The notes under the pieces are model-generated. The model was not told the DNA's origin, made no database searches, and saw only the letters and a list, made by a program, of their open reading frames with translations. Below are positions 57,562 to 64,000 of a DNA stretch of 64,000 nt, piece after piece. The translations under genes and the position numbers were made by a program. Every line of letters begins with the position of its first letter. The stretch's first letter is position 1. Source of the stretch: a virus; the IMG/VR virus record IMGVR_UViG_3300045004_000088, positions 128,001 through 192,000 of that record; one strand, 5' to 3'.

Positions 57562-57855
57562 TCAAGACGAGGTTTTATTTTGTTGTTGTTGGCCGTGGCT
57601 CAGGTACTTCTCCAAAACGTCCCAGACGTTCGTGGACTTCAGCTTGGTCGGTGCTTGGTTGCCAGCACCCGGTGCGCCACCGCCCGGCCCGCCCATAGGA
57701 GGAGGTCCACCCGGAGGCAAACCGCCGCCACCCATAGGTGGAGGACCGCCCATCGGAGGACCACCCGGCGGTGCGCCACCGCCCGGAGGACCGCCCGCCG
57801 GTGGTGGCGGTGCCGCGTCTTCGATAAGATTCAAGAACTGGGTGAATGTCTTCAT
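57562..57855 (-). CDS. Gly/Pro-rich low-complexity small protein (uncertain; the opposite strand also carries an ORF)
   Basis: Met 66 of ORF 57562..58050. GTATATAC lies 6 nt upstream. A hairpin plus U-tract terminator overlaps the stop. Confidence 0.3.
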   Translation of the reverse strand: MKTFTQFLNLIEDAAPPPPAGGPPGGGAPPGGPPMGGPPPMGGGGLPPGGPPPMGGPGGGAPGAGNQAPTKLKSTNVWDVLEKYLSHGQQQQNKTSS

Positions 57856-57860
57856 CGCAG

Positions 57861-57868
57861 GTATATAC
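57861..57868. promoter_or_regulatory. palindromic GTATATAC motif
   Basis: Identical to the flank GGTATATACG at 2178. Sits between the minus start 57855 and the plus ORF 57895. Confidence 0.3.
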
Positions 57869-58114
57869 GATCCGGGTAAGAAGAAAGGGGCGTCATGGCT
57901 TGGAACTTTTGTGGCGGGTGCAGGCGGGCTTTTGAAAGCTGGATTCACTGTCAGGGCTTCAGGTGCCACGACTGCCCTCGTCAGATTCCCTCGATACTCG
58001 ATGTGATGAGCAGAGCCGATTTGGAAGAAAATCCAAAATCGCGCGAACAAAACCCGTCGAGCGGCGTCTACTATTGTGAGCGGCCCGCGAAGCCGAAAAA
58101 AATTCGCGAACGGG

Positions 58115-58343
58115 TTGACGAGAAAAAGAAGTCAGCCTACTATGTAACGACAGAGCGGCAAAAGCCCTCTGCAAACACACGAAGAAAAATGAACACGTTC
58201 TCCCTTAGTCTGTTTAGCTCGCTGTCGTCCTTGTATCACAAGAGACGAGACGCAGGCTCTACGGGCTGAGTGAGGTACACCAGAACCTCTCAGACGAACA
58301 CCCGAAGACCCGCGTCTCCCAAGACGCGGGTCTTCTTGTTTTT
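58115..58343 (+). ncRNA. candidate small RNA transcription unit (sigma70-like promoter to rho-independent terminator)
   Basis: TTGACG-17nt-TACTAT at 58115-58143. About 190 nt of AT-rich sequence with no convincing ORF. Strong terminator at 58304-58343. Confidence 0.3.
58304..58343 (+). terminator. rho-independent terminator
   Basis: GAAGACCCGCGTCT-ccca-AGACGCGGGTCTTC followed by TTGTTTTT. Confidence 0.65.
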
Positions 58344-58352
58344 CTGGAGGCT

Positions 58353-58724
58353 GTGATGGAATTCAAACGTGACGTGATGAGGTTGTTGGTTCCGGGCGTC
58401 AAGTACGTCGGCCCCGGTTTGGACTACGAAAAACTGCCGCCGCAAACGGAAGCGGCGGTCAAGATGGTGTGCAAGAAGTTCGGGATCAGCTACAGCCACG
58501 CGGAAGAGATTGTCGGGGACATCGACAAGTACCAGTGGCACATCGAGCGGATCAGGTTCATGGACGACAAGGTGAGAGAGTTCCTTCGGGAACACGACGT
58601 GGTCGGCGCGGTCAAGGCGATCAAGGCGGTTCGACCGGACTGGGGCTTGCTGAACTGCAAGCTGTACATGGAAGACGTGCGTGACGGGAAGAAACCGTGG
58701 CCGGCAGTGAAGGCGGTCAAATGA
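58353..58724 (+). CDS. hypothetical protein
   Basis: GGAGG RBS; GTG at 58353 or ATG at 58356. Confidence 0.55.
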   Translation: MMEFKRDVMRLLVPGVKYVGPGLDYEKLPPQTEAAVKMVCKKFGISYSHAEEIVGDIDKYQWHIERIRFMDDKVREFLREHDVVGAVKAIKAVRPDWGLLNCKLYMEDVRDGKKPWPAVKAVK

Positions 58725-58891
58725 AAAAGGCCGTCAACGAAGAAGAGAAACAGTGGATGAAAAACCGCGACAAGAAGTTGCGGCCGAAGCCCGGACTGTT
58801 TTGGTGCGACTGTGATCGCAACCACGTTTCCGCGTGGCAAAAATGCGAGGTATGTAACAGTCGGACTGGCAAGCGGTGCTTTAAGAAGTGA
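58721..58891 (+). CDS. small zinc-finger protein
   Basis: ATGA overlap with the upstream gene; CDCD...CEVCNSRTGKRC. Confidence 0.4.
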   Translation: MKKAVNEEEKQWMKNRDKKLRPKPGLFWCDCDRNHVSAWQKCEVCNSRTGKRCFKK

Positions 58892-58893
58892 AT

Positions 58894-58921
58894 GCGGTTG
58901 TGGCGAAACTGGTAGACGCGC
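58894..58921 (+). repeat. 28-nt duplicate of the 5' end of tRNA-Leu(CAG) (acceptor plus D-arm)
   Basis: gcggttgtggcgaaa[c/t]tggtagacgcgc matches 59459-59486 with one mismatch; diverges after the D-arm; no T-arm or 3' acceptor. Confidence 0.5.
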
Positions 58922-58969
58922 AAGATGGCAAATTCTGAGGTGTGATACTCTGCTAAGTGCGGAGGAAAC

Positions 58970-59458
58970 ATGCCAAAGAAAAGAAACTGGACCGACGAGC
59001 AATTGAAGGAAGCTGTTGCTACTTCGTTCTCGTACTCAGAAGTGTTGAGAAAACTGAAGTTGAAGTTCGCTGGCGGAACTCACGCGGCGATCAAGCAAAA
59101 AGTGAAGTGGTTGAAACTCAATGTTTCGCATTTCACAGGCAGTAGTTGGTGTCGAGGTGAGAAGTACCGACAAACGCTACTGAAAAGGAACACCCGAACA
59201 CTGGAAGAGATCTTGGTAAAAGACTCGACCTATCAATCGGGGGCGAAGCTGAAAAAGAGGCTGGTGACGGCGGGAATTTTGAAAGACATCTGCTGCCAGT
59301 GTGGGAATGAAGGTGTGTGGTGCGGTCAAGCTCTGACGTTACAGCTTGATCACAAGAATGGCGACCGGACTGATCACAGGTTAGAAAACCTCCGAGTGAT
59401 ATGTCCAAACTGTCATTCGCAGACACCTAACTTTGCTGGACGTAACGCGAAGAAGTAA
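58970..59458 (+). CDS. HNH homing endonuclease
   Basis: LQLDHKNGDRTDHRLENLRVICPNCH; GGAGGAAAC RBS; stop abuts the tRNA-Leu start. Confidence 0.65.
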   Translation: MPKKRNWTDEQLKEAVATSFSYSEVLRKLKLKFAGGTHAAIKQKVKWLKLNVSHFTGSSWCRGEKYRQTLLKRNTRTLEEILVKDSTYQSGAKLKKRLVTAGILKDICCQCGNEGVWCGQALTLQLDHKNGDRTDHRLENLRVICPNCHSQTPNFAGRNAKK

Positions 59459-59540
59459 GCGGTTGTGGCGAAATTGGTAGACGCGCGGTCTTCAGATGGC
59501 CGTCCCGCAAGGGGTGTGGGTTCGACTCCCACCAACCGCA
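59459..59540 (+). tRNA. tRNA-Leu(CAG), type II
   Basis: Acceptor GCGGTTG/CAACCGC. Anticodon stem CGGTC/GGCCG with loop TTCAGAT. Long variable arm. T-arm GTGGG-TTCGACT-CCCAC. No encoded CCA. Confidence 0.7.
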
Positions 59541-59607
59541 CTGTAAGACCCGGCAACGGGTGTTCTTTGACAACTGGGCGAGACAACAAGCGGTTCTCGG
59601 AGCAGCT

Positions 59608-59862
59608 ATGAAAAACGTTTGGTTGGAATTTTTGCAGTTGAAGACCGATTTCCCGCTCGGATCGTGGGTACAAATGACACTCGATCCTTTGGACGATTAC
59701 TTTGAATCGATCTGGGCTTCTGATATGATGGGGGTAGTGACGGGGTACAACATCATGCAGTCACTGGTGGTGGTGTACTTCGACAACAACGTCACGATGC
59801 AGTGCGGCCCGAAACTACTGAAGGTCGTTGAAAGCCCTTTGGTCCATGACTGGGACATGTGA
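59608..59862 (+). CDS. small hypothetical protein
   Basis: Met 17 of ORF 59560..59862 with GGAGCAGC RBS. Confidence 0.45.
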   Translation: MKNVWLEFLQLKTDFPLGSWVQMTLDPLDDYFESIWASDMMGVVTGYNIMQSLVVVYFDNNVTMQCGPKLLKVVESPLVHDWDM

Positions 59863-60092
59863 AAATGACGGACAAAGAAGAGATCGAGATCCTTCAGGCT
59901 CGTATCGATGAGTTGAAGGGGGTAAAGAGCGGCCCGCCGAAGTGTTTCCACTGTGGCGGGAGCGGCGAGGTCGCGTGGGAAGGAACCTGCTACTACTGCG
60001 TGGGGAGCGGTTACTGCTACCCACCGAACGATCCCAACCATTGGAGCAACAAGAAAGAAGAAAACGGACCTTATTACGATCAGGTCTGGTGA
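59859..60092 (+). CDS. small Cys-rich protein
   Basis: CFHCGGSG...CYYCVGSGYC; start overlaps the upstream stop. Confidence 0.45.
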   Translation: MKMTDKEEIEILQARIDELKGVKSGPPKCFHCGGSGEVAWEGTCYYCVGSGYCYPPNDPNHWSNKKEENGPYYDQVW

Positions 60093-60097
60093 GATAA

Positions 60098-60179
60098 GCC
60101 AAAGTGACGGAAATGGCAGACGTACTCCGCTCAAAACGGAGCGCCGCAAGGCGTGTGGGTTCGATTCCCACCTTTGGCA
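60098..60179 (+). tRNA. tRNA-Leu(CAA), type II
   Basis: Acceptor GCCAAAG/CTTTGGC. Anticodon stem CTCCG/CGGAG with loop CTCAAAA. Variable arm CGCCGCAAGGCGTGT. T-arm GTGGG-TTCGATT-CCCAC. Confidence 0.7.
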
Positions 60180-60185
60180 CTAACT

Positions 60186-60266
60186 GTACCGGCTGAACAT
60201 GGGCGAGTTCCCCTGGCTGTAACCCAGGTGCCTTCGGCTGTAGAGGTTCGACTCCTCTCCGGTACA
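60186..60266 (+). tRNA. tRNA-Tyr(GTA), type II
   Basis: Acceptor GTACCGG/CCGGTAC. D-stem GAA/TTC. Anticodon stem CCTGG/CCAGG with loop CTGTAAC. Variable arm contains a GCC-TTCG-GC tetraloop hairpin. T-arm AGAGG-TTCGACT-CCTCT. Confidence 0.65.
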
Positions 60267-60268
60267 CT

Positions 60269-60486
60269 GCATCCGCAACGGAATAGCCTTGATCGGTCTT
60301 GGGATAATTAACAAGGTGCTGCTCGATAAGTAGCGAAAGCTACCGCTTGCGGGCGTAAGGTCGGGGTGCAAGTATCGACCTCAAGACGGCGGATGCAATC
60401 GGGTGTCGATCCACACGGCAGACTGTAAATCTGCTGCCATTATCCTGTGTGGCGGTCGGCGATGGGTTCAACTCCTACGGCACCCA
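60269..60486 (+). ncRNA. unresolved structured RNA: 128-nt helix-closed domain with GNRA tetraloops plus a tRNA-like 3' part
   Basis: GCATCCGC (60269-76) pairs with GCGGATGC (60389-96) around GTAGC-GAAA-GCTAC and C-GTAA-G. The 3' part has GGGTGTC/GGCACCC acceptor-like ends and GCAGA-CTGTAAA-TCTGC, but no room for a D-arm. Confidence 0.3.
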
Positions 60487-60499
60487 CTGGAGACTCGCG

Positions 60500-61018
60500 A
60501 TGAGCGACATGATGGAACTTCTGGCGAAACGGTACGCCGAACCCGATCTGAACCCGTATCTTTTCGAGATCGGACAAAAGGTGAGGCTCCGCAAGGGCCG
60601 CTCGAACGACGGGCAGACGCCTCAACATTGGGACGGGGCAGTCGCAACAGTCGAAAGTCGATACTGCACCGGACTCCACAAGGAACACTGGTACAAGTTG
60701 AGACACTCGAACGGCCAACTGGCAGAGTTCTGCGAAGACGAGATCGACGCACGCTACGCGCGGCGGCGAGTCAACTTCAAAGAAGTTCTGGCCGAGGAGA
60801 ACCCGAAAGCCATCGTGTTTGACGGACTCGAAGAAGCCATGATCGGCGTCGGCGGTCAAACGACGCAGAGGCTCGCGGTCTACAGTGTCCGAAAGATCAT
60901 GGAACTGCTCAGGCAGAAACACGGCGACGAACAAGCGGCCCAAGAGTGGTTCGACTTCAACATCGCGACCCTCTGGGCCGGCGAGAATACTCCGATCTTG
61001 GTGTACGATGAAGTCTGA
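60500..61018 (+). CDS. hypothetical protein
   Basis: Met 18 of ORF 60449..61018 with GGAGACTCGCG RBS. Confidence 0.5.
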   Translation: MSDMMELLAKRYAEPDLNPYLFEIGQKVRLRKGRSNDGQTPQHWDGAVATVESRYCTGLHKEHWYKLRHSNGQLAEFCEDEIDARYARRRVNFKEVLAEENPKAIVFDGLEEAMIGVGGQTTQRLAVYSVRKIMELLRQKHGDEQAAQEWFDFNIATLWAGENTPILVYDEV

Positions 61019-61280
61019 AGACAATCTGCGGGTGGCTCCTCACGAGGAAACACCCAGGCAGAAGTATCTGTGTGACAACGCGAGACACCTGATCTGCGTG
61101 CCGTATTCCATTGATAATCTGCACAAGATGGCGGCAGATTTGGGAATCAAGAAGTGCTGGTTCCACAAGGACCATTACGACATTCCGAAGCGACGGATCG
61201 CCGAGATCACCGCGAAGTGCGAGGTCGTGGACAGCCGAGAAATCGTCAAGATCGTGAGGCCGAAGAACTCTGCGAAGTGA
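61008..61280 (+). CDS. hypothetical protein
   Basis: Met 42 of ORF 60885..61280; overlaps the upstream gene end by 11 nt. Confidence 0.45.
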   Translation: MKSEDNLRVAPHEETPRQKYLCDNARHLICVPYSIDNLHKMAADLGIKKCWFHKDHYDIPKRRIAEITAKCEVVDSREIVKIVRPKNSAK

Positions 61281-61289
61281 TAGAAATTT

Positions 61290-61371
61290 GGGTCTGCTAA
61301 CGCTGTGGGAAGCTACGTTGACTGTAAATCAGCCGCCTTCGGGATAAGAGGTTCGATTCCTCACAGACCCA
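61290..61371 (+). tRNA. tRNA-Tyr(GTA), second copy, slightly non-canonical D region
   Basis: Acceptor GGGTCTG/CAGACCC. Anticodon stem GTTGA/TCAGC with loop CTGTAAA. Variable arm has a CC-TTCG-GG hairpin. T-arm GAGG-TTCGATT-CCTC. Confidence 0.5.
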
Positions 61372-61377
61372 CTGAAT

Positions 61378-61452
61378 GCCTACCAAATGCTAATCTAGTG
61401 AAAGCTTAGGTTTGAAAAACCTAGTAGCCCGGAGCGTAACCGGGGGTAGGCA
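61378..61452 (+). tRNA. tRNA-like, possibly tRNA-Phe(GAA) with non-canonical T-loop
   Basis: Acceptor GCCTACC/GGTAGGC. D-stem GCT/AGC. Anticodon stem TAGGT/ACCTA with loop TTGAAAA. T-arm CCCGG-AGCGTAA-CCGGG lacks TTC. One to two extra nt at positions 8-10. Confidence 0.3.
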
Positions 61453-61471
61453 CTAGCCAGTATGCTCGTTC

Positions 61472-61542
61472 GGGATTACATGACAATTGGTTAAGTCGGG
61501 GAACTCAAATTCCCTATAGCTGGTTCAAATCCAGCGTATATC
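61472..61542 (+). tRNA. tRNA-like fragment or pseudo-tRNA (anticodon-like loop ACTCAAA, intact T-arm, no pairing acceptor)
   Basis: GGGGA-ACTCAAA-TTCCC hairpin plus canonical T-arm GCTGG-TTCAAAT-CCAGC. The 3' flank GTATATC does not complement the 5' GGGATTA. Confidence 0.25.
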
Positions 61543-61566
61543 TCGTGCAAATTTTGACTGGCAACT

Positions 61567-61639
61567 GCCGCGCAGGTGTAAAGGGTAGACACGCTTCCCT
61601 GAAAAGGAAGAGGACTCGGTTCGACTCCGAGGGGCGGCA
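61567..61639 (+). tRNA. tRNA-Phe(GAA)
   Basis: Acceptor GCCGCGC/GGGCGGC (one G-G mismatch). D-stem GTGT/ACAC. Anticodon stem CTTCC/GGAAG with loop CTGAAAA. T-arm CTCGG-TTCGACT-CCGAG. Confidence 0.65.
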
Positions 61640-61740
61640 CTTGAATAGTTTCGGCCTATGGCTGAAGAACGCCAAACCGTTGTCAGATAGACGCCAGAGG
61701 TGACTAGATTTTAGTAGGTGGTCCCTACTAGGAGTCAGTC

Positions 61741-61947
61741 ATGAACATCGACAACGTGAAGAGTGGCGTGAGCAAAGAGGAAGTCATGAGGCTGCTGCGT
61801 GCGGCCGGCATGCTCCAAGACTCGACGCCGGTGAAGCTGCAACAGATGCGGGCGGTTCGCGTGTCGCGGCCGGAACCCCGGCCCGAACACGAAGAACTCG
61901 GCATGAGCCACAGCGAGTGGTTCCGCCGCTACGTCAGCGACTGGTAA
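61741..61947 (+). CDS. small hypothetical protein
   Basis: GGAG RBS downstream of a TAGTAGG/CCTACTA hairpin. Confidence 0.45.
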   Translation: MNIDNVKSGVSKEEVMRLLRAAGMLQDSTPVKLQQMRAVRVSRPEPRPEHEELGMSHSEWFRRYVSDW

Positions 61948-62178
61948 TCACTTCCCGGCAACGAGCTTGCGGAGGTCGCTGGACGACTTAGACGGGTTAC
62001 GGATGATTTCTTTCACCAGTTCCTCGCCTTTGGAACTGGTGATCTTCGACCAGACCTTTTCGAGCGTGGTGCGGTTGTACTTCTTGACCAGCTTCTTCAG
62101 CCCGTCGATAAAGTCCTCGACGGCTTCGATGTCGCTGCTGCCCGTACCCGACTCGACAAATTGACGAAACGATTGCAT
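61948..62178 (-). CDS. small hypothetical protein
   Basis: 76-aa ORF with GGAGGG RBS; convergent with 61741..61947. Confidence 0.5.
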   Translation of the reverse strand: MQSFRQFVESGTGSSDIEAVEDFIDGLKKLVKKYNRTTLEKVWSKITSSKGEELVKEIIRNPSKSSSDLRKLVAGK

Positions 62179-62193
62179 AGACCCTCCAGTCTA

Positions 62194-62237
62194 TGTATCG
62201 ACTCGGAAGGAAAATATGTATCGACTCGGAAGGAAAA
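62194..62237 (+). repeat. tandem direct repeat 2 x tgtatcgactcggaaggaaaa (period 23); second copy forms the 5' end of tRNA-Ser(GGA)
   Basis: Exact duplication, visible in the sequence. Confidence 0.5.
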
Positions 62238-62313
62238 CCGGATGGGTGTCCGGCATCGCCTGGAAAGTGATTGGTGCCTTAAACGGCATGGGGATCGATA
62301 CCTCTTCCTTCCG
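62228..62313 (+). tRNA. tRNA-Ser(GGA), type II, non-canonical (T-loop ATCGATA, 4-bp T-stem)
   Basis: Acceptor GGAAGGA/TCCTTCC (7/7). D-arm CCGG-ATGGGTGT-CCGG. Anticodon stem ATCGC/GTGAT with loop CTGGAAA. Variable hairpin GTGCC-TTAAAC-GGCAT. T-arm GGGG-ATCGATA-CCTC. Confidence 0.5.
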
Positions 62314-62416
62314 CTATGTGTGACTGCAAAATGTGTCGGGCGCGGAAACGCAAAAAGCTCATCGACACGCTCCATTCAAAAGGCGTCATCCTCGTACACA
62401 GGGGCGAAGACTTTCT

Positions 62417-62728
62417 ATGCCAAACAAGTTCGAGGGCCGCTGGCGTTGGTGCAACCACTGCCAGTGCGCGAGAATCCGATGCTTCAAGTGCGGCAACATC
62501 TCGTGTAGCGGCGGCGGATGCGTCGAGTGCCACGACGAATTCACCGAAGCGATCAGAATGAGCGGCACGGGCGAACACCCTAGCAAAGAAGAACTCCTCG
62601 CCGACACCGAAGGCATTAGAATTGATGCCGAGTGGGGCGAAAAGGTATGGGACGCATGGTCGAGTACACAATCAAAAAAGGCAGCAAGCACCAGAACAGA
62701 CGGTGCGGCTACTGCGACGGGCGAATGA
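62417..62728 (+). CDS. Cys-rich small protein (uncertain; overlapping alternative ORFs)
   Basis: Met 29 of ORF 62333..62728; CNHCQCARIRCFKCGNISCSGGGCVEC; tail low-complexity. Confidence 0.35.
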   Translation: MPNKFEGRWRWCNHCQCARIRCFKCGNISCSGGGCVECHDEFTEAIRMSGTGEHPSKEELLADTEGIRIDAEWGEKVWDAWSSTQSKKAASTRTDGAATATGE

Positions 62729-62871
62729 CGCCCGGCCGCAAGTTCGTACTCGACCCGGAACGGTACGAAAACCAACTGCCAATGATCTTCCACCCGCAGT
62801 GCCGCGAAGCGTGGGTGAAGCGTGGCAAACAACCGCTGTGCCGAGGTAACTGTGACACTGTACATGCTTGA
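62656..62871 (+). CDS. small Cys-containing hypothetical protein
   Basis: Internal Met of ORF 62632..62871; CGYCDG...CREAW...CRGNC. Confidence 0.4.
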   Translation: MVEYTIKKGSKHQNRRCGYCDGRMTPGRKFVLDPERYENQLPMIFHPQCREAWVKRGKQPLCRGNCDTVHA

Positions 62872-63052
62872 GTGGTACAACGGCCTCGAATACGCAGACG
62901 CCGAGACGACACTGTTGGGCGTTTATCGAAGTGAAGAAACGCGATCCGAGGCCGAACAACGGTATCGCGAGTCGGAGGAACGTTGGCCCTTCACTAGCAA
63001 GGAAGGGAAGTTCGTGAAGTGGGAGATCCAGTTGGACAAGGATCTGGTGTGA
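62864..63052 (+). CDS. small hypothetical protein
   Basis: Met 15 of ORF 62822..63052; ATGCTTGA overlap with the upstream stop. Confidence 0.4.
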   Translation: MLEWYNGLEYADAETTLLGVYRSEETRSEAEQRYRESEERWPFTSKEGKFVKWEIQLDKDLV

Positions 63053-63055
63053 TAC

Positions 63056-63140
63056 GGAAGGGACTGTGAGTGGCTACACGACTTTGTTTGCTAAACAAAG
63101 ATACGGCAACGTATTGCGGGTTCGACGCCCGCTCCTTCCG
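63056..63140 (+). tRNA. tRNA-Ser(GCT), type II, with extended 6-bp anticodon stem
   Basis: Acceptor GGAAGGG/TCCTTCC. D-stem TGTG/CACG. Anticodon stem CTTTGT/ACAAAG with loop TTGCTAA. Variable hairpin ATACG-GCAA-CGTAT. T-arm GCGGG-TTCGACG-CCCGC. Confidence 0.6.
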
Positions 63141-63143
63141 CTC

Positions 63144-63233
63144 GGCTCTGTGCGCTAAATGGTAAAGCGGCAAGTTTCAAAAACTTGTGTCTCCCCGCGT
63201 GGGAAATTATCGGTTCGAGTCCGATCAGAGCCA
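63144..63233 (+). tRNA. tRNA-Leu(CAA), second copy, type II
   Basis: Acceptor GGCTCTG/CAGAGCC. D-stem CGC/GCG. Anticodon stem CAAGT/ACTTG with loop TTCAAAA. 21-nt variable arm. T-arm ATCGG-TTCGAGT-CCGAT. Confidence 0.65.
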
Positions 63234-63244
63234 CTTGAATCTTT

Positions 63245-63272
63245 TTGTCTTGTTCTGACAGTACACTAGAAT
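63245..63272 (+). promoter_or_regulatory. sigma70-like promoter candidate TTGTCT-16-TAGAAT
   Basis: Upstream of the HNH-AP2 gene, which has a GGAGG RBS. Confidence 0.3.
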
Positions 63273-63287
63273 GTAGTGGAGGTCATA

Positions 63288-63719
63288 ATGAACAAATACA
63301 GCAAAAAGAAATCCGATCAGCTAGGTGTCAACTTCAGTACGGCGTGCCACACTTTGAGGAAGTGTGTAATGTTCTCTCTGCTGAAAGAAGCCAAGAAAAA
63401 CGTTTGCTTCAGGTGCGGCAAGGCAATTCAGACTGCCGAAGAACTGAGTCTTGACCACAAAGAAGATTGGCTTGACAAGACCAACGCCAAAGAACTCTTC
63501 TTCGATTTGACCAACGTGGCCTACAGCCACCGCCGCTGCAATACTTTGGCGATGTTGGACAAACGCACACAGTTTCGCGGTGTGACCAAGATGGGTGGTA
63601 AAAAGAAACGTAAAAAGCCATATACGGCTCGCTGGTGGGATGGGACCAAGCAGGTGCATATCGGGTATTTCGCGACGGCCGAGGAAGCACAGAAAGCATT
63701 AGAAGAAAGGTCCAAATGA
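63288..63719 (+). CDS. HNH endonuclease with C-terminal AP2 DNA-binding domain
   Basis: LSLDHKEDW...NV..SHRRCN HNH; FRGVTKMGGKKKRKKPYTARWWDGTKQVHIGYFATAEEAQKA AP2-like; lower GC. Confidence 0.65.
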   Translation: MNKYSKKKSDQLGVNFSTACHTLRKCVMFSLLKEAKKNVCFRCGKAIQTAEELSLDHKEDWLDKTNAKELFFDLTNVAYSHRRCNTLAMLDKRTQFRGVTKMGGKKKRKKPYTARWWDGTKQVHIGYFATAEEAQKALEERSK

Positions 63720-63919
63720 ACGCACAATACGTTTGCAACAAGTGTGGGGAACCGGCAGAAATGGATACTCGCATGGGTGGTGGAGACGTGTACCTAACAT
63801 GCGGGTGCGACAGAAATGGGGAATGGGTCGATGACGGTCGCGGTGGGTATTACGACACCGACGCACAGCCAGTTCTCGTGCAAGAACCGAAAATGCAAAA
63901 ACCAAAAAAGGAAGATTAA
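63716..63919 (+). CDS. small zinc-ribbon protein
   Basis: ATGA overlap; AAAGG RBS; CNKCG...CGCDRNG. Confidence 0.45.
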   Translation: MNAQYVCNKCGEPAEMDTRMGGGDVYLTCGCDRNGEWVDDGRGGYYDTDAQPVLVQEPKMQKPKKED

Positions 63920-63994
63920 CCGGACGGGGTCCGGCACCGCCTCGAAAGCGGTTGGTGCCTTAACGGGCATGGGGATCGATACCTCAGTCTTCCG
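63910..63994 (+). tRNA. tRNA-Ser(CGA), type II, paralog of the 62228 tRNA with the same non-canonical T-loop
   Basis: Acceptor GGAAGAT/GTCTTCC. D-arm CCGG-ACGGGGT-CCGG. Anticodon stem ACCGC/GCGGT with loop CTCGAAA. Compensatory changes relative to the 62228 copy. T-arm GGGG-ATCGATA-CCTC. Confidence 0.5.
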
Positions 63995-64000
63995 CTCACG

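Follow-up and report, generated by a model that had tools for sequence, protein, structure and literature searches.

Are the tRNA genes crowded at one end of a stretch of viral DNA the decaying by-products of homing endonuclease insertions, or genes that the virus maintains in unusual forms? The question is raised by positions 58,894 to 64,000 of a 64,000-nt stretch of DNA (positions 128,001 to 192,000 of the IMG/VR virus record IMGVR_UViG_3300045004_000088), which is called the window in its full length. A preliminary description of this tRNA island, made without database searches, ascribed its duplicated isoacceptors and tRNA-like remnants to ongoing turnover driven by endonuclease insertion. 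Our comparisons lead us to a different reading, which we consider probable: the island would be part of a conserved tRNA module of a huge phage, in which structurally unusual tRNA lineages are maintained and HNH genes associated with tRNA-Leu are selfish passengers.

The island contains 11 intact-looking tRNA genes, together with one irregular tRNA-like element (element X), two tRNA fragments, two HNH genes and five Cys-rich open reading frames (ORFs). The anticodons of the 11 genes are Leu-CAG, Leu-CAA (twice), Tyr-GTA (three times), Phe-GAA (twice), Ser-GGA, Ser-GCT and Ser-CGA. Seven genes have a near-standard cloverleaf, and the other four fall into three phage-specific lineages. No close relative of the window was found among cultured phages; the closest relative is the 261-kb IMG/VR contig 3300013121_000017 (loci L005 and L232), whose SbcD-like protein is 72% identical.

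Detection of the tRNA genes

We searched the window with ARAGORN at its default setting and at a 90% threshold (-ps90), with Rfam at the gathering threshold and with three covariance models (R1-R3). Because ARAGORN and Rfam both rely on the conserved T-loop, we also wrote a cloverleaf scanner that requires four stems, ignores loop sequence and reads both strands of the full 64 kb. Default ARAGORN reported six tRNAs in the 64-kb window, every one on the + strand within 59,459-63,234, and Rfam recovered four of these six. At the 90% threshold ARAGORN gave 11 matches in the 5-kb island versus 3 in the other 58 kb. The stem scanner identified nine elements with at most one stem mismatch, all on the + strand and all in the island: tRNA-Leu(CAG) at 59459-59541, tRNA-Leu(CAA) at 60098-60180, tRNA-Tyr(GTA) at 60186-60267, tRNA-Phe(GAA) at 61378-61452 and 61567-61640, tRNA-Ser(GGA) at 62228-62314, tRNA-Ser(GCT) at 63056-63141, a second tRNA-Leu(CAA) at 63144-63234 and tRNA-Ser(CGA) at 63910-63995. 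Its other matches all needed two mismatches. The tRNA density of the island far exceeds chance. Covariance models built without window sequences added Ser-GGA, Ser-CGA, the second Phe-GAA and the second Tyr-GTA. All nine tRNAs named in the preliminary description are thus present on the + strand; the systematic prediction that it proposed as a check yields only six (ARAGORN) or four (Rfam) with default settings, but relaxed scans and family models raise the count to 11.

The standard cloverleaf stems (7-bp acceptor stem, 7-nt anticodon loop and T arm) are found in the 11 genes and not in element X. The nucleotides of the tRNA elbow, G18 G19 and T54 psi55 C56, are kept in seven genes and altered in Ser-GGA, Ser-CGA, the Phe gene at 61378 and the Tyr gene at 60401; these four score under the Rfam threshold. 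Among the canonical genes, Leu-CAG is a class II tRNA with a perfect cloverleaf (called by ARAGORN; Rfam 53 bits), and both programs also report the first Leu-CAA (52.6 bits), the Phe gene at 61567 (50.6 bits) and the second Leu-CAA, which lies beside an HNH gene (55.1 bits). Default ARAGORN further calls the Tyr gene at 60186 (Tyr #1), a canonical cloverleaf without stem mismatches that falls under the Rfam threshold and has an 86% identical orthologue in L232, and Ser-GCT, which has a canonical T-loop and no stem mismatches.

Three noncanonical tRNA lineages

The tRNA-Phe(GAA) at 61378-61452 (+ strand) has perfect stems, the D-loop AATCTAGTGAA and the T-loop AGCGTAA, and carries A18, A54, G55 and U58. 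Neither default ARAGORN nor Rfam at E≤10 detected it; the model R1, built without the window Phe sequence, scores it at 80.2 bits (E 1e-16). The orthologue in L232 has both loops unchanged together with compensating changes in four of the five anticodon-stem pairs. A search for the pattern AATCTAGTGAA-N-GAGCGTAAC recovered 109 viral contigs, in almost all of which the gap is exactly 29 nt. They provided 65 distinct sequences, all with the anticodon GAA and 47 of them followed by a genomic CCA. Across these sequences 97.9% of the alignment cells are paired, double-sided changes occur in 18 of 20 pairs, and covariation scores 0.85 compared with 0.20 after shuffling. Searched for in 185,579 genomes of bacteria and archaea, the A18/G55/U58 tRNA-Phe had only 5 matches, all of them in metagenome-assembled genomes. 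Other members of the lineage pass the Rfam tRNA model with 42-49 bits; the window copy lies under the cut-off because 2 nt are inserted after positions 8-9. In L232, a sibling tRNA-Phe with G18 and the T-loop ATCGAAA lies about 130 nt downstream of the A18/G55/U58 copy, and this pair of siblings offers a natural comparison for the 18/55 pair. A tRNA-Phe of the same phage type is carried by the 426,929-bp sequence JAOZSQ010000001.1, labelled as a Thermoplasmatota archaeon metagenome-assembled genome, which may be a huge phage that was mis-binned.

The tRNA-Ser(GGA) at 62228-62314 and the tRNA-Ser(CGA) at 63910-63995 (both + strand) are paralogues that share the T-loop ATCGATA, with A at position 54; Ser-GGA has a 5-bp D stem. 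Ser-GGA was called neither by default ARAGORN nor by Rfam. The model R2, built without window sequences, scores the two genes at 88.1 bits (E 1e-21) and 91.4 bits (E 1.5e-22), respectively, and also detects two members just past the window end and four in a third phage (L237). By blastn, Ser-CGA is 79-86% identical to unannotated DNA within the tRNA regions of five cultured phages, namely Xanthomonas phages BUDD and X1, Stenotrophomonas phage DLP_6, roseophage DSS3_MAL1 and Myxococcus phage Mx1. The A54 tRNA-Ser lies unannotated at 2477-2562 of the BUDD locus (ON758385, L001), at ~2494-2580 of the DSS3_MAL1 locus (MN602268, L003) and at ~2477-2562 of the DLP_6 locus (KU682439, L004), and is likewise present without annotation in phage X1. 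An exact 40-mer of Ser-CGA was not found in IMG/VR. The pattern TGGGGATCGANACCTC occurs there in at least 119 stretches, from which at least 54 distinct cloverleafs were recovered. Among the matches listed, 52 of 54 have Ser anticodons (TGA 31, CGA 11, GGA 7, GCT 3), and the two other anticodon calls are probably misfolds by the quick heuristic; a genomic CCA stands directly 3' of 37 of the at least 54 distinct sequences. An alignment of 19 sequences has 97.2% of its cells paired and 20 of 26 pairs changed on both sides; its covariation score of 0.78 falls to 0.21 on shuffling and to at most 0.15 on sliding the pairing partners. At equivalent positions of the window and L232, the Ser genes belong to unrelated sequence types.

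As a separate observation, Myxococcus phage Mx1 has a TROVE/Ro60-like gene 2.4 kb from its tRNA-Ser (OR576727, L002 4977-5080), a neighbour that makes Y-RNA-like tRNA mimics conceivable there.

The third lineage is represented by the second tRNA-Tyr(GTA) (Tyr #2), at 60401-60486 on the + strand, which has no D hairpin. Nucleotides 11-16 (CCACAC) instead pair with GTGTGG inside a long variable region. A relaxed ARAGORN call at 60391-60487 had two acceptor mismatches and was discarded, as its 5' end lies 10 nt early according to the family alignment; starting at 60401, the acceptor stem GGGTGTC/GGCACCC is perfect. The model R3, built without the window sequence, gives 78.9 bits (E 2e-22) with zero non-standard pairs. 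A 72% blast match to another viral locus (L157) led to the pattern GACTGTAAATCNGNTGCCAT, which occurs in 96 viral stretches and defines one family of about 25 distinct sequences, most of them with a genomic CCA end; blastn against 50,697 cultured-phage records found no match to the lineage. The shared layout consists of the acceptor strand, 3 nt, a 6-nt strand, the anticodon arm, TGCC and an A/T-rich stretch, followed by the complement of the 6-nt strand, TGG or AAG, GGCA, the T arm and the 3' strand of the acceptor. The long-range 6-bp helix (helix A) is paired in 20 of 20 sequences, with double-sided changes at four of six pairs (for instance CCCTAC/GTAGGG, CCCAAC/GTTGGG, CCTCTC/GAGAGG and CCACTT/AAGTGG), and 96.3% of all cells in the lineage are paired. 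A putative helix B (TGCC/GGCA) has one strand fixed by the search pattern. The trinucleotide 3' of helix A is TGG in 14 sequences with U55 and AAG in five with G55, the window having CGG with U55; because it tracks position 55, this trinucleotide behaves like G18 G19.

The remaining tRNA-Tyr(GTA) (Tyr #3, 61290-61372, + strand), found by ARAGORN at -ps90, combines a perfect acceptor stem with a reduced D stem. Its L232 orthologue is 84% identical and accepted by default ARAGORN; the two differ by two double-sided compensatory changes in the anticodon stem and have the minimal D region in common.

Compensated changes in the tRNA elbow

The unusual nucleotides of these lineages have counterparts in other phage tRNAs. 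From 99 viral loci fetched for the Phe pattern we collected 753 distinct cloverleafs, the Phe genes themselves being excluded. The D-loop contains GG in 659 of the 682 cloverleafs with U55, whereas 57 of the 62 with G55 lack GG, 56 of these having AG in its place (Fisher 3e-60 for 18/55). Positions 54 and 58 are T/A in 648 cases, A/T in 67 and A/A in 11 (Fisher 8e-82). As the surveyed sequences are related, both p-values are overstated, although the direction of the association is clear. A search of the accessible literature found no paper describing this pattern at 18/55 and 54/58 in phage tRNAs. One array of this survey (IMGVR_UViG_3300045413_000228, locus L181) lacks a UUC T-loop in 13 of 13 non-Phe cloverleafs, which mostly have TGC with the D-loop AG or ATC with GG.

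Taken together, between 96 and 98% of the cells are paired in the three lineages, with many double-sided compensatory changes, and most noncanonical family members in other phages lie within tRNA arrays. By thermodynamic folding alone the family structures did not stand out (z-scores -0.9 to -2.4), so the case for these structures rests on covariation. Since the stems of each family covary while the unusual core nucleotides stay fixed, the four noncanonical genes appear to be maintained genes and not remnants. By the same comparisons, the copies that predictors overlook belong to old and widespread lineages under structural selection.

A module serving four amino acids

Two contig loci (L233 and L463) match the window at 100% identity across 15,031 nt and reach beyond its end, revealing that 58,894-64,000 is the first 5.1 kb of an 11.6-kb module extending to ~70,480. 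Past position 64,000 follow Ser-GCT, Ser-TGA (twice), Phe-GAA, Leu-GAG (twice), Leu-TAA and Leu-TAG; the last two, at 70,059-70,480, close the island, and the next 3.2 kb are free of tRNAs. The full module comprises about 21 tRNA genes on a single strand. Each codon of Leu, Ser, Phe and Tyr is covered and no other amino acid is served, several anticodons being carried by two or three structurally distinct genes. Metagenome contigs as long as 476 kb carry the first HNH gene of the island with 100% identity, and genes elsewhere in the window encode NrdA/B, CTP synthase and SbcCD-like proteins.

The syntenic module of the closest relative has 16 default and 24 relaxed ARAGORN calls and ends in the same Leu-TAA and Leu-TAG. 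All calls are Leu, Ser, Tyr or Phe except for a few relaxed ones, some on the minus strand, that are probably false. The same four-amino-acid restriction is found in the 12 tRNAs of L237 and on the short contigs L359, L360, L464 and L465. A run of three Tyr genes, Phe, element X and Phe is kept in three lineages.

The anticodons of the module read the codons that the phage uses most for these four amino acids (CTG, CTC, TTG, TCG, AGC, TCC, TTC and TAC), and the Leu, Ser, Phe and Tyr codons amount to 22% of all phage codons. Compensation for rare codons, as judged by phage codon usage alone, was therefore rejected, as the tRNAs fit the commonest codons instead. A scan for sigma-70 promoters and terminators gave background levels in the island interior. 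The module would be transcribed rightwards together with its small ORFs, and the transcripts might be processed by host RNase P and 3' nucleases, releasing tRNAs that would decode the most-used Leu, Ser, Phe and Tyr codons of the phage.

HNH genes associated with tRNA-Leu

The two HNH genes of the preliminary description were confirmed at 58970-59458 (HNH#1) and 63288-63719 (HNH#2), both on the + strand. HNH#1 is free-standing and encodes 162 residues with 22.5 bits to Pfam HNH_3 (cut-off 24.8). It has 405 homologues, one of which is named F-TflIV by its source, and many have PF13392 or PF01844 or are annotated as HNH endonucleases in cultured phages. HNH#1 and its upstream spacer (58925-59458, 534 bp) are missing from the syntenic site of the closest relative, in which the flanks are collinear and the upstream Cys-rich ORF runs directly into an intact tRNA-Leu-CAG. 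In the window, this ORF gives way to the opening 31 nt of a tRNA-Leu, after which come the 534 bp with HNH#1 and then the complete tRNA-Leu-CAG. The 5' fragment (58894-58924, + strand) aligns to nucleotides 1-31 of the uninterrupted L232 gene, diverges beyond, and is repeated at 59459-59486 with 27 of 28 nt identical (repeat family D11). The insertion is thus flanked by a direct repeat of the first 28-31 nt of the tRNA plus the preceding AAGAAGTRA, and the stop context of HNH#1, AAGAAGTAA, repeats that of the upstream ORF, AAGAAGTGA. Three of three examined homologues with 49-58% identity also adjoin tRNA-Leu, in the orders Leu-CAA/HNH, Leu-CAG/HNH/Leu-CAA and Leu-CAA/HNH/Ile (L236, L237 and L239). 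A split or intron-containing tRNA-Leu around HNH#1 was considered and rejected: no intron fold was seen and the downstream tRNA-Leu is complete on its own. Rfam intron families gave no match at E≤10, and the intron mode of ARAGORN added nothing new.

HNH#2 encodes 143 residues when read from the ATG at 63288 (the start in the longest ORF is 63276) and matches the PHROG family of HNH endonucleases (E 4e-21), its Pfam HNH score being weak (16.8 bits, cut-off 21.4). A full-length exact-sequence lookup found no match for it, the gene caller having taken a shorter start (P0122). The unit of the second Leu-CAA and HNH#2 has 78% nucleotide identity over 63149-63706 to L359, where a different gene lies upstream, and a 57% identical homologue is located between Leu-TAG and Leu-CAA in L360. 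Two of three examined homologues (L359 and L360) thus adjoin tRNA-Leu, and no tRNA lies near the distant third (L361/L362). In L232, 2 nt separate Ser-GCT from Ser-CGA, and in the window Leu-CAA, HNH#2 and a small ORF lie between them, which is suggestive of a second insertion that is present in one relative and absent from the other.

Both genes probably encode free-standing homing endonucleases and target tRNA-Leu genes as selfish passengers. Insertion of the HNH genes and subsequent repair might have left the tRNA-Leu 5' fragment and the relocated Leu-CAA gene, and would be the reason for the mosaic gene order among the relatives.

Element X and other tRNA-like remnants

Element X (61473-61544, + strand) was found by ARAGORN at -ps90 with a 6-nt anticodon loop and two acceptor mismatches. 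It is located between two Phe genes in the window, L232 and L465. Its T stem covaries across the relatives, its loops are irregular, and L232 and L465 have an insert of 16-19 nt. The D-loop and the T-loop change together, GG occurring with TTCAAAT and AG with TGCGATT. Element X resembles the short tRNA-Leu genes of L237, L236, L239 and L360, which have no long variable arm. It is probably a pseudogene of such a short tRNA-Leu(CAA)-type gene, with a conserved tRNA-like RNA of another role as a further candidate. An opal suppressor was also considered, as a central TCA is common to its copies in three lineages, and judged unlikely because position 33 is variable, the loops are irregular and TGA ends more ORFs of the window than any other stop codon (25 of 52).

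The short tRNA-Leu genes themselves are of 75-77 nt (L237 2354-2428 and 2643-2719, L236 3865-3939, L239 3855-3930, L360 323-494 and 952-1027). They lack the long variable arm that is normal in bacterial tRNA-Leu, and several adjoin HNH genes.

A perfect 23-nt tandem duplication at 62192-62237 (+ strand, 100% identity, spacing 23, family D12) copies 13 nt of leader and the first 10 nt of Ser-GGA. Element X, the 31-nt tRNA-Leu fragment and this duplication make up the remnants; the presence of remnants reported before is confirmed, although they are fewer than, and other than, what a degenerate island implies.

Small ORFs and neighbouring genes

Five small ORFs on the + strand encode 56-103 residues, of which 6-9% are Cys, arranged in CxxC pairs; no Pfam or PHROG family matches any of them, and two are conserved in L232. 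The first, directly upstream of the island (58721-58891, 56 residues, 5 Cys), is 66% identical to an ORF at the equal position in L232. An ORF of 75 residues with two CxxCxGxG motifs (59865-60092) and one of 103 residues with 8 Cys (62417-62728) are called genes in the identical contig L233. The zinc-ribbon-like ORF of 74 residues (62647-62871) is 79% identical in L232, 77% in L464 and 63% in L465, with Ser tRNA genes on either side in the latter two. The last, of 67 residues (63716-63919), is absent from the genes called in L233; its start and the HNH#2 stop overlap (ATGA), and it runs into the 5' end of Ser-CGA. The count of about ten such ORFs given previously is too high, as it is reached only by including the HNH proteins, a DUF4031 protein and a doubtful overlapping ORF.

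Trbp111/CsaA-like proteins bind the tRNA elbow, and are of interest beside altered elbows. A 114-residue protein with a tRNA_bind domain of this kind (PF01588) is encoded inside the island of both phages (L233 15985-16329, window-equivalent 64,954-65,298; L232 10375-10705). Downstream of the island (L463 18588-20351, window-equivalent ~71,956-73,719) lie genes for a fragment of a class II aminoacyl-tRNA synthetase core (147 residues, PF00587/PF13393), a NUDIX hydrolase and ribosome recycling factor. A short way upstream of the island, a 14-bp perfect hairpin at 58304-58335 (GAAGACCCGCGTCT / AGACGCGGGTCTTC) followed by TTGTTTTTCT resembles an intrinsic terminator and has a weak 6C-like Rfam match. 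Farther upstream, a minus-strand ORF at 57562-58050 has a long low-complexity run of Pro and Gly (PPPPAGGPPGGGAPPGGPPMGGPPPMGGGG), and a similar ORF occupies the equal position in L005. The gap between Tyr #1 and Tyr #2 (60268-60397) has a 9-bp terminal inverted repeat (TGCATCCGC ... GCGGATGCA) around ~110 nt of hairpins and contains a GGGTGCAAGT motif, with a fold z-score of just -1.9; the matching intergenic region of L232 includes a T-arm-like TCGGG TGCAAGT CCCGA.

Discussion

Endonuclease-linked rearrangement of the island appears to be real. It would account for the fragments and for part of the mosaic gene order, but not for the duplicated isoacceptors. The account given in the preliminary description, in which endonuclease insertions duplicate tRNA genes, extra copies decay and elements overlooked by predictors are pseudogenes or remnants, draws on genuine signs of flux: the tRNA-Leu 5' fragment adjoins HNH#1, part of Ser-GGA is tandemly duplicated, element X has an irregular anticodon loop, acceptor mismatches and inserts in its orthologues, the window A18/G55/U58 Phe copy has its 2-nt insertion, and unrelated types of Ser genes occupy equivalent positions in the window and L232. 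The four supposedly degenerate elements, however, score 79-91 bits on their family models with all or nearly all pairs standard, and their families have genomic CCA ends and pervasive compensatory changes. The multi-copy layout from the three Tyr genes to the second Phe gene has also been preserved in three lineages. The comparative genomics proposed at the outset hence upholds turnover for the insertion of HNH#1, absent in L232, and contradicts it for the duplicates and the "degenerate" copies, which are conserved and covary. We therefore regard decay as an improbable explanation of the island as a whole.

A conserved module with maintained lineages has weak points of its own. The window Phe copy may be impaired, given that no other family member has its 2-nt insertion, and the D stem of Tyr #3 has only 2 bp. 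The loop motifs of the three lineages were set by the search patterns, making their invariance partly one of construction; this bias does not touch the stems or the statistics for 18/55 and 54/58. The sequences used for the covariation counts are related, which inflates the significance estimated by shuffling. The restriction to four amino acids is known from ~74 kb of a 476-kb genome, and other islands may exist elsewhere in it. Finally, the Pfam scores of both HNH genes lie under the curated cut-offs.

What could such a module be for? One proposal is a spare set of tRNAs against defence, which would sustain Leu, Ser, Tyr and Phe decoding without host tRNAs when a tRNA-directed defence is active, with altered isodecoders that its enzymes do not recognise. 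The isoacceptor sets are complete for four amino acids only, three of which have class II tRNAs in bacteria, and canonical and noncanonical isodecoders stand side by side in the window phage and in L237. The toxins AbiEii and MenT3 favour class II tRNAs (bioRxiv 10.64898/2026.01.19.700257), a preference that would fit this set. Retron-Eco7 PtuAB degrades tRNA-Tyr and is counteracted by the tRNA-Tyr of phage T5 (PMC11555353), which would fit the multiple Tyr genes. The CRISPR-associated Schlafen nuclease Cash cleaves the T-loop UUC, and single changes of U54 or U55 abolish cleavage; its action on phage tRNAs was left open in that 2026 study (PMC13462974). Position 54 is A in both A54 Ser genes, and 54/55 are A/G in the Phe gene at 61378, which is compatible with evasion of an enzyme that requires U54 and U55, and no more than compatible. 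Some phage arrays, such as that of L181, are devoid of UUC T-loops, and the Phe lineage is nearly absent from bacterial and archaeal genomes. On the other hand, nine of the 12 tRNA-like elements in the window, counting element X, still have the UUC T-loop. Cash acts broadly and is not specific for class II tRNAs, and Phe is not a class II tRNA. The altered elbows could be explained equally well by tolerated drift or by adaptation to a phage factor such as the tRNA_bind protein of the island. An anti-defence role of the unusual tRNAs is plausible on these grounds, and as an explanation of the module we hold the spare set only tentatively. Plain codon supplementation, in which the phage supplies more tRNA for codons that it uses more than its host and the odd structures are neutral, would agree with anticodons that read the commonest Leu, Ser, Phe and Tyr codons. 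It leaves unexplained the limit to four amino acids, the two or three divergent genes per anticodon and the unusual core nucleotides conserved over more than 100 contigs, and rare codons (TTA 2% and CTA 3% of Leu) also receive tRNAs further along the island. This simpler account seems to us unlikely.

Several features of the island have precedents. The tRNA region of phage T5 holds the HNH endonucleases F-TflI, II and IV. Like T5, and like T4 with SegB, the window has free-standing homing endonuclease genes among phage tRNA genes, with a homologue of HNH#1 named F-TflIV and HNH#1 itself present in one relative and absent in another. SegB of T4 is a GIY-YIG enzyme, whereas both window genes are of the HNH type, and the association with tRNA-Leu and the duplicated 5' fragment are known here from sequence comparison. 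SegB is reported to favour inheritance of the T4 tRNA region in mixed infection (PMC2330249). Dense, same-strand tRNA arrays with interspersed small ORFs are described for large phages and mycobacteria (PMC6409571, PMC5966550). Such arrays mix most amino acids, as do the 20-30 mixed tRNAs of other phage loci fetched here, whereas this module and its relatives have only Leu, Ser, Tyr and Phe in full isoacceptor sets. Phage-encoded copies of attacked tRNAs are likewise known (PMC11555353, PMC10264068, PMC11464382), and the multiple tRNA-Tyr genes of the window resemble them. Besides the T5 tRNA-Tyr, the examples are tRNA-Lys of T1 and T7 against PrrC, tRNA-Lys of T5 against PARIS, and mycobacteriophage tRNAs with altered anticodon loops. 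The known cases involve oversupply or anticodon-loop changes, whereas the differences in the window concern the T-loop, the D-loop side of the elbow and the D arm.

The unusual structures themselves are not without parallel. Eukaryotic initiator tRNA has A54 together with A60, a precedent for A at position 54. Metazoan mitochondrial tRNAs without a D arm (PMC4013460) are a precedent for a working tRNA without a D hairpin. Unlike the mitochondrial tRNAs, which lose the arm outright, the Tyr lineage forms a 6-bp helix between the D strand and the variable region, the GG or AG after this helix tracks U55 or G55, respectively, and the lineage belongs to a bacterial virus and not an organelle. In comparison with known tRNA islands with homing endonucleases, the new elements are the three noncanonical lineages, the compensated elbows and a complete repertoire for four amino acids only.

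In its most far-reaching and quite tentative form, the module might be a self-sufficient decoding set, carried by a clade of huge phages, for the class II tRNAs (Leu, Ser and Tyr) and Phe, with re-engineered isodecoders as a back-up to the canonical genes, isosteric elbows that evade host enzymes and a new architecture without a D hairpin. If this were true, phage tRNAs would exchange G18-U55 for A18-G55 and T54-A58 for A54-U58 as alternative isosteric elbows, these changes would hide them from host enzymes that recognise the universal T-loop or the shape of class II tRNAs, and the D-hairpin-less tRNA-Tyr would be a tRNA architecture undescribed outside organelles.

In summary, default tools missed five of the 11 tRNA genes in this island, and the A54 tRNA-Ser is unannotated in GenBank records of cultured Xanthomonas, Stenotrophomonas and roseobacter phages; phage tRNA censuses and codon-usage studies are therefore systematically undercounting. 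That only Leu, Ser, Tyr and Phe are served, each by a full set of isoacceptors, points to some form of selection acting on just these tRNAs. The noncanonical genes, each beside a canonical paralogue that can serve as a control, are ready test substrates for a nuclease that cuts the T-loop. The lineages show, in repeated natural instances, how changes at the tertiary pairs most conserved in tRNA are compensated and, in tRNA-Tyr, how a D stem is built with the variable region.

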